Source: Escherichia coli (GTDB taxonomy: Bacteria > Pseudomonadota > Gammaproteobacteria > Enterobacterales > Enterobacteriaceae). Taken from it: 64,000 nucleotides of DNA. Position 1 is the stretch's first letter, and every line of letters starts with the position of its first letter. The stretch lies in the NCBI RefSeq assembly GCF_045037415.1, contig NZ_CP173438.1; one strand, 5' to 3'. The position numbers are program-made. Below, in pieces: positions 57,001-60,000 of this stretch.

Positions 57001-60000
57001 GGCACCTTTACCTACCGCTTTACGCAGCATTTCTTCTGCGGCCTGCGTACTGAATGATGAAGCAACGAGCAATGAACCTAACAGTAATGAACCACGCAGG
57101 CGCGATGAAAACAGATGACGTAAATGCATGACGACTCCCTTTGATGAACCGATATTTTTGCTGCTTCACAATGCTTCGCTAAGCGTAATCATCGTTACGC
57201 CCTTGTTATAAATGGGAATGGTAATCATTATTTTCTCAAATGTGGAGCATTTCTTACCGTTATGACTACAATTTTCTCAATTACTTAACGTATTGTGCCG
57301 TTTTGTTTTCCATAAATTTACAATTTTATTACCATGACGGTGTTTTCCCATTCTTAACCTGGCTTTTTTCATGAAGATTTTTTCCGTCCGACAGACCGTT
57401 TTGCCCGCACTGCTTGTCCTTTCCCCCGTTGTTTTTGCCGCTGATGAACAGACCATGATTGTCAGTGCCGCACCGCAGGTGGTTTCAGAACTGGATACCC
57501 CAGCAGCCGTGAGCGTGGTGGATGGCGAGGAGATGCGCCTGGCAACACCGCGCATTAACTTGTCTGAATCACTGACCGGAGTGCCTGGTTTACAGGTACA
57601 AAACCGACAGAACTATGCGCAAGATTTACAGCTGTCGATTCGCGGATTTGGCTCCCGCTCCACTTACGGAATTCGCGGTATTCGCCTGTATGTGGACGGT
57701 ATTCCCGCTACCATGCCCGACGGACAAGGGCAGACATCTAACATCGATTTAAGCAGTGTGCAAAATGTGGAAGTGCTGCGTGGCCCCTTCTCTGCTCTGT
57801 ATGGCAACGCGTCTGGCGGTGTAATGAATGTCACCACCCAGACCGGACAACAGCCACCAACCATTGAAGCCAGTAGTTACTACGGCAGTTTTGGCAGCTG
57901 GCGCTATGGGCTGAAAGCAACGGGCGCAACGGGCGACGGCACACAACCCGGCGATGTCGATTACACCGTCGCAACCACACGTTTTACGACCCACGGCTAT
58001 CGTGACCATAGTGGCGCACAGAAAAATTTAGCCAATGCCAAACTGGGCGTACGCATTGATGACGCCAGCAAATTAAGCCTGATTTTCAATAGTGTGGATA
58101 TCAAAGCAGATGACCCAGGTGGGCTAACCGAAGCAGAATGGAAGGCGAATCCACAACAAGCGCCTCGTGCAGAACAGTACGACATGCGAAAAACCATCAA
58201 GCAAACTCAGGCTGGGTTGCGCTATGAGCGTAGCCTGAGCGCACAAGATGATATGAGTGTGATGATGTATGCCGGAGAGCGAGAAACGACCCAGTACCAG
58301 TCAATCCCCATGGCCCCGCAACTTAACCCGTCACATGCGGGCGGCGTGATTACCCTGCAACGCCATTACCAGGGGATAGACAGCCGCTGGACACACCGTG
58401 GTGAACTGGGCGTTCCAGTCACGTTCACAACCGGCCTGAACTACGAAAACATGAGTGAAAACCGCAAGGGTTACAATAACTTCCGCCTGAATCGCGGCGT
58501 GCCGGAATACGGGCAAAAAGGTGAGTTGCGCCGCGACGAACGCAATTTGATGTGGAACGTCGATCCCTATTTACAAACCCAGTGGCAACTGACCGACAAA
58601 CTTTCGCTGGATGCTGGCGTGCGCTACAGCTCCGTGTGGTTTGATTCCAACGATCATTACGTTACTCCGGGTAACGGCGATGACAGCGGTGATGCCAGTT
58701 ATCACAAATGGCTACCTGCCGGATCGTTAAAATATGCAATGACCGATGCCTGGAATGTCTATCTGGCAGCCGGGCGCGGTTTTGAAACGCCGACGATTAA
58801 TGAACTGTCTTATCGCGCTGATGGACAAAGCGGTATGAACTTTGGTTTAAAACCCTCCACCAACGATACAATTGAGATCGGCAGTAAAACGCGTATTGGT
58901 GATGGACTGCTTAGTCTCGCATTGTTCCAGACCGACACCGATGATGAAATTGTTGTCGATAGCAGTAGCGGTGGGCGTACGACTTACAAAAATGCCGGAA
59001 AGACCCGTCGTCAAGGCGCTGAACTGGCATGGGATCAACGTTTCGCGGGAGATTTTCGCGTAAAAGCGTCCTGGACCTGGCTTGATGCGACCTATCGCAG
59101 CAATGTCTGCAATGAACAGGATTGTAACGGTAACCGGATGCCAGGGATCGCCCGTAATATGGGCTTTGCGTCGATAGGTTATATACCGGAAGATGGTTGG
59201 TATGCAGGCACGGAAGCGCGTTATATGGGCGATATTATGGCAGATGATGAAAATACGGCCAAAGCGCCTTCTTATACACTCGTCGGCTTATTCACCGGGT
59301 ATAAATACAATTACCACAATTTAACCGTGGATTTATTTGGTCGTGTCGATAATTTATTCGATAAAGAATACGTTGGTTCTGTCATTGTCAATGAGTCAAA
59401 CGGGCGATATTACGAACCTGCGCCCGGACGAAATTATGGTGTCGGCATAAATATTGCGTGGCGATTTGAGTAATTATCTTTAAGCCCGGTATTTGCCGGG
59501 CGTATTTTATTTATCGGCTGTATTGCTGGCACAACATAGCAACGTTTTTTTGCATAGTGAGGTTTTCGACAGCCAGAGCAACTGCCATTAACTCCAGTTC
59601 GTAGCGGATCCGATTGATTTCATTTAATTGACGTTTTCCCACTTCCGGAACTGTAAATGCTTGCGCTGGTGCGACAAAGAGCGCATTTACCGAAACCAGA
59701 CGTAAGGAACCGGCGCGCCATGCGGACGCGAGGACAGAACCCAACATCGGTTACGCTGCGTTTGTTGCCCCATAATGCTCTCCTGTGCTTTTGGCATGAA
59801 TCCATCAATAGTAGCAGGCTCACAGGATTGGTTTTGTTTGCAGCCGTCACATCCCCTCTGCAACACGCAATAATTTCATAGAGGAATCCGTTGCTTCGGG
59901 CTGTTTTCGATAGTATTGATAACATCATCATCATTATTTTATCGAGGCCAGACATGTCCATCCGTTTTGCCCGCAAAGCCGACTGTGCTGCAATTGCGGA

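Follow-up and report, generated by a model that had tools for sequence, protein, structure and literature searches.

Two deletions reduce mcbR and curA to pseudogene stubs in a presumably B2-type lineage of Escherichia coli

What has become of mcbR and curA in an E. coli genome in which only a few hundred base pairs separate yncD from mnaT, the genes that flank them in K-12? We addressed this question in a stretch of 64,000 nucleotides (contig NZ_CP173438.1; hereafter the window), which is colinear with strain SK1144 at 99.99% identity. Between positions 3 and 50000, the comparison with SK1144 showed 2 mismatches and 2 single-base gaps across 50 kb. The ORF list and annotation place yncE at 56068-57129 on the minus strand and, next to it, the TonB-dependent receptor gene yncD/pqqU at 57371-59473 on the plus strand. 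The latter is the intact left flank of the locus; it is a 700-aa ORF, is labelled pqqU in the record of SK1144, to which it is 100% identical, and shows 96.0% identity to K-12. The right flank is formed by mnaT (yncA; 59955-60473, plus strand), an intact GNAT acetyltransferase gene with ydcZ (60469-60918, plus strand) behind it. Its product, WP_000027563.1, was the same in every deletion-class record that was fetched. With yncD/pqqU ending at 59473 and mnaT starting at 59955, the gap measures 481 bp (59474-59954), as the sequence-only reading had estimated (about 480 bp). The K-12 counterpart of this gap is about 2.1 kb and contains mcbR and curA: in MG1655 and in one K-12-like genome, pqqU is followed by mcbR (666 bp), a 197-bp spacer, curA (1038 bp), a 180-bp spacer and mnaT. 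Both annotations agree with the statement in that reading that K-12 has full-length copies of the two genes here.

An alignment to K-12, which had been proposed as a way to define the breakpoints, was run with blastn (word size 7) against a K-12-like locus (L002), followed by left- and right-anchored alignments. The first block obtained by blastn (window 59300-59556, L002 2959-3213) leads from the 3′ end of yncD across the intergenic hairpin into the last 46 nt of mcbR, the second (window 59550-59705, L002 3513-3668) is an internal piece of mcbR, and the third (window 59706-60100, L002 5001-5395) runs from the first 68 nt of curA through the intergenic region into mnaT. The block offsets, in blastn as well as in the anchored alignments, correspond to two deletions, one of 306 bp (D1) and one of 1332 bp (D2). 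D1 lies within mcbR and is in frame, removing 102 codons (about codons 106-207). Its junction, J1 (59550-59556), appears as an overlap of the blastn blocks with anchored offsets that differ by 306 bp, and harbours the microhomology TTGCA (59550-59554), which is common to both K-12 flanks. The junction of D2, J2 (59705/59706), is blunt, window position 59705 corresponding to L002 3668 and 59706 to L002 5001. With D2, codons 1-55 of mcbR, the 197-bp spacer between mcbR and curA, and curA from codon 23 to its end were lost, and this took away the promoter, start codon and helix-turn-helix of mcbR together with nearly all of curA. The blastn search against L002 returned only the three colinear blocks and no inverted, transposed or inserted piece; in the anchored alignments the blocks abut directly, and neither junction contains foreign or IS-derived sequence, IS elements at this locus being confined to other genomes. 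The remnant had been described as scrambled, but it keeps the K-12 order and orientation throughout and differs by two simple deletions.

Two pieces of mcbR survive, both on the minus strand. The 3′ tail (59511-59556) comprises the last 14 codons and the native TAA stop, forms the end of the first blastn block and matches McbR residues 208-221 in BLASTP; it shows 6-9 differences per 46 nt from intact alleles. The middle piece (59557-59705, corresponding to L002 3520-3668 and to mcbR gene positions 166-314) contains codons 56-105, which encode the wing of the winged helix and the first FCD helix. It is 93.3% identical to L002; 10 of its 149 nt differ from intact sequence, 8 of them in comparison with each of the four intact alleles. 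Both pieces are part of a 78-codon hybrid ORF (59511-59747, minus strand), in which 14 out-of-frame curA 5′ codons are followed by McbR 56-105, McbR 208-221 and the native stop. In BLASTP this ORF matched McbR residues 52-108 with 88% identity (E 2e-32) and then residues 208-221 with 64% identity. It is thus what had been recognised from the sequence as a GntR-type segment with a tail resembling the C-terminus, and the upstream frame is disrupted as noted then, since upstream of residue 56 it enters out-of-frame curA 5′ sequence.

In K-12 McbR, Pfam places a GntR domain (PF00392) at residues 13-74 and an FCD domain (PF07729) at residues 84-209. The remnant retains only residues 56-74 of the former and, of the FCD region, only about residues 84-105 plus 208-221; hmmscan of the 78-aa remnant found zero Pfam families at E<=0.1. 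A full-length ORF of about 221 aa with native start and promoter is not present, and the mcbR-orthologous sequence (blastn E 1e-62, BLASTP E 2e-32) lies at the syntenic position beside yncD/pqqU in K-12 order and orientation. The blastn and BLASTP results and the absent Pfam domains support the earlier claim that mcbR, compared with K-12, has been cut down to a non-functional remnant, whose predicted product cannot act as a DNA-binding regulator. Divergence is unevenly spread along the locus: the segment 59474-59556, that is the yncD-mcbR spacer and the mcbR tail, is 81-83% identical to all intact alleles fetched, while the flanks are at 96-98%, and the last 24 nt of mcbR show 6 differences from the closest intact tail (allele L003). 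This low identity could be due to local decay or to an old divergent allele.

For curA, which had been thought absent, this applies to all codons beyond codon 22, whereas the first 68 nt with the start codon and the full intergenic region towards mnaT have been kept. The 5′ stub (59706-59773, minus strand; L002 5001-5068) consists of the start codon and the first 22 codons, shows 4-6 differences per 68 nt from intact alleles and is labelled by PGAP as "hypothetical protein, missing C-terminus". Lost are 323 of the 345 codons and both dehydrogenase domains, which Pfam places in K-12 CurA at residues 9-116 (ADH_N_2) and 161-302 (ADH_zinc_N); in place of an ORF of about 345 aa with these two domains, 68 nt of its 5′ end are left. 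A 28-codon ORF (MGQQTQRNRCWVLSSRPHGAPVPYVWFR; 59687-59773, minus strand) opens at the native curA ATG (59773) and stops just past J2; it is a by-product of D2 and a predicted ORF only. The divergent curA-mnaT intergenic region (59774-59954, 181 bp) is present as a whole and contains promoter-like hexamers on both strands. As it survives at 98.9% identity to K-12, the expression of mnaT is probably unaffected. Between the convergent ends of yncD and mcbR lies a G+C-rich hairpin followed by a T-run (59484-59501, plus strand), the sole terminator-like site in 59400-60000, which is invariant among eight B2-type alleles.

These preserved elements raise the question of whether the remnant has taken on a new role, with the curA promoter driving a transcript that either encodes one of the two small products (78-aa hybrid, 28-aa peptide) or runs towards yncD/pqqU as antisense or read-through RNA. 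Given the near-identity of the intergenic region to K-12, a transcript and even a peptide are conceivable, and the sole terminator-like site faces the plus strand. However, the helix-turn-helix is lost, no Pfam domain is left, and a search of the interval for structured RNA gave no Rfam match at E<=1. We also compared eight carrier alleles from different backgrounds. These were of equal length without any indel, and both small ORFs were open in all eight, which would suit a new role. Against it, variable sites were three times as frequent in the remnant pieces (9 of 263 bp, 3.4%) as in the flanks (9 of 821 bp, 1.1%; Fisher p = 0.02), and the amino acid sequence of the 78-codon ORF is altered at 6 of the 9 variable sites. 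By a rough estimate, the approximately nine substitutions in the sample would be expected to create only about 0.4 stop codons, so that the open 78-codon frame is no evidence of selection. We therefore regard a new function of the remnant as very unlikely. The carrier variation fits neutral drift after a single event that took place before the sampled carriers diversified. When the middle piece was compared with intact alleles, 7 of 9 changed codons were synonymous (binomial p = 0.004 against a neutral 30%), and the intact alleles are themselves diverse, with identities down to 92.7% over the deleted region. Much of the divergence thus predates the loss and cannot date the deletion. The identity of the remnant to K-12 (81-93%) is accordingly no measure of the age of the loss, given that most of the fixed differences are silent and that intact alleles vary by as much as about 6-7% at this locus.

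Is the short form a feature of one strain or of a lineage? In a survey of 5426 complete E. coli genomes, an 801-bp query spanning the scar was fully covered in 1042, about one in five. A 120-bp query over J1 matched in these 1042 genomes and in zero others, and a 120-bp query over J2 was fully covered in 1041 of the 5426. The 1332 bp removed by D2 were found by sensitive blastn in 4371 genomes and in zero of the 1042 carriers. Together, the two groups make up 5413 genomes, which is every genome with the locus, the other 13 being without it; the deleted and the intact state are thus mutually exclusive, and carriers have no second copy. A relocated copy of mcbR/curA in the carriers was considered and is ruled out by the same search, in which the deleted 1332 bp remained unmatched in 1042 of 1042. 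No intermediate with D1 alone or D2 alone occurred among the 5426 genomes, both junctions being always found together, and either order of D1 and D2 would fit this. Identity of the adjacent 700 bp (intergenic region and mnaT) to the window was bimodal: 1041 records reached >=99%, and the class below them lay at <=98.3%, indicating that the scar travels with one flanking haplotype.

Some further observations were made on the locus in this survey. The non-carrier RIVM_C037791 (NZ_CP086624.1, L005 3082-3540) has an IS200C between pqqU and mcbR, and in the non-carriers TUM1881 and OkiPb01679 an IS1 lies within curA. Coverage of the deleted segment fell below 80% in 15 of the genomes that have the locus. 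Some locus matches were reported on plasmids (2-10 places, depending on the query); the likely reason is that replicons, or pieces of the chromosome, were wrongly labelled in those assemblies.

Carriers with strain names include the EPEC O127:H6 strain E2348/69, the asymptomatic-bacteriuria strain 83972, O25b:H4-ST131, ExPEC XM and S88, all of which we take to belong to phylogroup B2, with 83972 presumably an ST73-type strain. From the phylogroups of these named strains, we infer that the carriers represent a B2-type lineage. Intact genes are found in the K-12, O157:H7, O104:H4 and O102:H6 genomes. In every carrier record that was opened, RefSeq/PGAP annotates both stubs as incomplete pseudogenes ("partial in the middle of a contig"). 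This is in line with their make-up, as relatives have functional homologues at this position and the stubs lack essential parts. In addition, the same junctions recur across a coherent set of genomes in which a functional copy elsewhere is absent, as in a scar of a lineage. A peculiarity of one strain that resequencing might reverse, as the earlier reading had allowed for, is contradicted by the presence of the same allele in 1042 of 5426 genomes on one haplotype and by the RefSeq pseudogene annotation. That the deletion arose recently in this genome alone, or reflects an error in its sequencing or assembly, is likewise so improbable as to be negligible: misassembly can create short gaps, and nothing more speaks for it, while more than 1000 complete genomes, sequenced independently by many laboratories on many platforms, share these junctions, which rules out an artefact.

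The direction of the change was considered as well. B2 is usually placed as an early-branching E. coli phylogroup, and on this basis the short form could be ancestral, with mcbR and curA inserted in the other E. coli lineages. The anatomy of the locus argues strongly against this. The short form contains a colinear mid-gene piece of mcbR that is fused in frame to the mcbR stop, plus the start codon of curA, and an insertion cannot yield a short form that carries internal fragments of both genes. In addition, McbR has been reported from Salmonella, Shigella and Enterobacter (PMC13343897). An ancestral short form is hence extremely unlikely, and the short form is to be seen as derived.

We conclude with high confidence that 59474-59954 is the inherited scar of two deletions that destroyed mcbR and curA in a B2-type ancestor. 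This ancestor would have had a K-12-like mnaT-curA-mcbR-yncD arrangement. In D1, 306 bp would have been lost between the TTGCA repeats, as is expected when slippage or illegitimate recombination is at work, and in D2 1332 bp with a blunt junction, comprising the start side of mcbR and almost the whole of curA. What was left, lacking a DNA-binding or ligand-binding domain, would have been drifting since. The allele was probably fixed before the sampled B2 lineages (ST131, 83972, S88, E2348/69) split and then inherited vertically. This is a routine case of lineage-specific gene loss of a known kind, the pieces being already flagged as pseudogenes in more than 1000 RefSeq records. An explicit report of a B2-wide mcbR/curA loss was not found in a full-text literature search, but such a loss is unlikely to surprise specialists.

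What might the loss mean for the carriers? In K-12, McbR represses mcbA (ybiM), and loss of mcbR leads to overproduction of colanic acid (Zhang et al. 2008 ISME J, as cited in PMC3464220). In APEC X40, efflux-pump promoters are bound by McbR (PMC7705038). In EHEC, McbR binds dihydrofolate and directly represses the ler promoter, and a report of 2026 describes it as the first gamma-proteobacterial transcription factor shown to sense folate (dihydrofolate) (PMC13343897). We found mcbA with its upstream region in 5420 of the 5426 genomes, showing that carriers retain an McbR target without McbR. Carriers would have no McbR repression of mcbA or ler, no McbR-based dihydrofolate sensing and no CurA curcumin reductase. 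E2348/69 is the prototype LEE-positive EPEC, and its genome is without McbR, so that the folate-LEE circuit of EHEC would not be expected to work alike in this strain. An altered biofilm behaviour, which the sequence-only reading had suggested as a result of the mcbR loss, is plausible by analogy with the work on K-12. As a caution, findings on McbR from K-12, APEC X40 and EHEC should not be transferred to B2 strains such as ST131, 83972, S88 and E2348/69, in which curcumin reduction by CurA should be missing as well.

Whether the loss was of use to the cells is a separate matter. Removal of McbR and/or CurA could have been advantageous to the B2 ancestor, as in an antivirulence-type loss; the clade in which the allele became fixed is large and successful, McbR has a wide regulatory reach in K-12, APEC and EHEC (PMC7705038, PMC13343897), and the target mcbA is retained almost throughout the genomes surveyed. 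However, drift is equally expected to fix an allele on a long stem branch, and other B2-type deletions in the window (dosC, the ddp operon and pqqL-yddB-yddA) fit general reductive noise, so we hold selection for the loss to be quite unlikely. An adaptive loss that left B2, including ST131, the ST73/ST95-type ExPEC strains and E2348/69, rewired, with mcbA lacking the repressor known from K-12, no McbR input to the control of efflux pumps, yciGFE and colanic acid, and the LEE of E2348/69 uncoupled from folate status and sulfonamide exposure, also appears unlikely to us. If it were true, B2 gut strains would be without the CurA route of curcumin reduction.

Other reductive differences from K-12 were seen in the window. 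At about 21672-22589 (junction 21672/21674), about 6.3 kb are missing between ydeM and gadB compared with MG1655. The loss takes in yddA, yddB and two-thirds of pqqL from its 5′ end, so that a 914-bp M16-peptidase stub (PGAP "missing N-terminus") remains; this transporter/protease cluster is thus gone although pqqU is retained. At about 27821-28033, an intact dosP is preceded directly by a stub of dosC, the gene for its diguanylate cyclase partner. The stub measures about 165 bp; about 1.26 kb of K-12 sequence are missing, and 46 bases at the junction are unaligned. At about 30534-30650, osmC follows almost directly after dosP, where MG1655 has ddpX, ddpA and ddpB; from a comparison of the SK1144 and MG1655 annotations, the ddp operon (ddpXABCDF) appears to be absent. 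At about 35058-35335, the SK1144 annotation shows a frameshifted RelE/ParE-family (higB-like) toxin gene beside an intact HigA-family antitoxin gene (yddM). With several such reductions in one region, the mcbR-curA scar is better explained by ordinary loss than by a special mechanism.

When compared with K-12 mcbR (yncC, b1450), the gene of a biofilm and colanic-acid regulator of the GntR superfamily (FadR/VanR-type), the remnant shares its position, its convergent orientation with yncD/pqqU and its native stop, whereas codons 1-55 and about 106-207, the promoter and any detectable Pfam domain are missing. Similarly, the start, the first 22 codons and the upstream region of curA (yncB, b1449; NADPH-dependent curcumin/dihydrocurcumin reductase, a medium-chain dehydrogenase/reductase) are still in place, but 323 of the 345 codons and both dehydrogenase domains of the K-12 gene are not. 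Like the losses of dosC, ddpXABCDF and yddA-yddB-pqqL, the mcbR-curA scar is a clean loss of K-12 genes with short pseudogene stubs left behind, and it differs from them in the genes concerned and in the sizes of the deletions.
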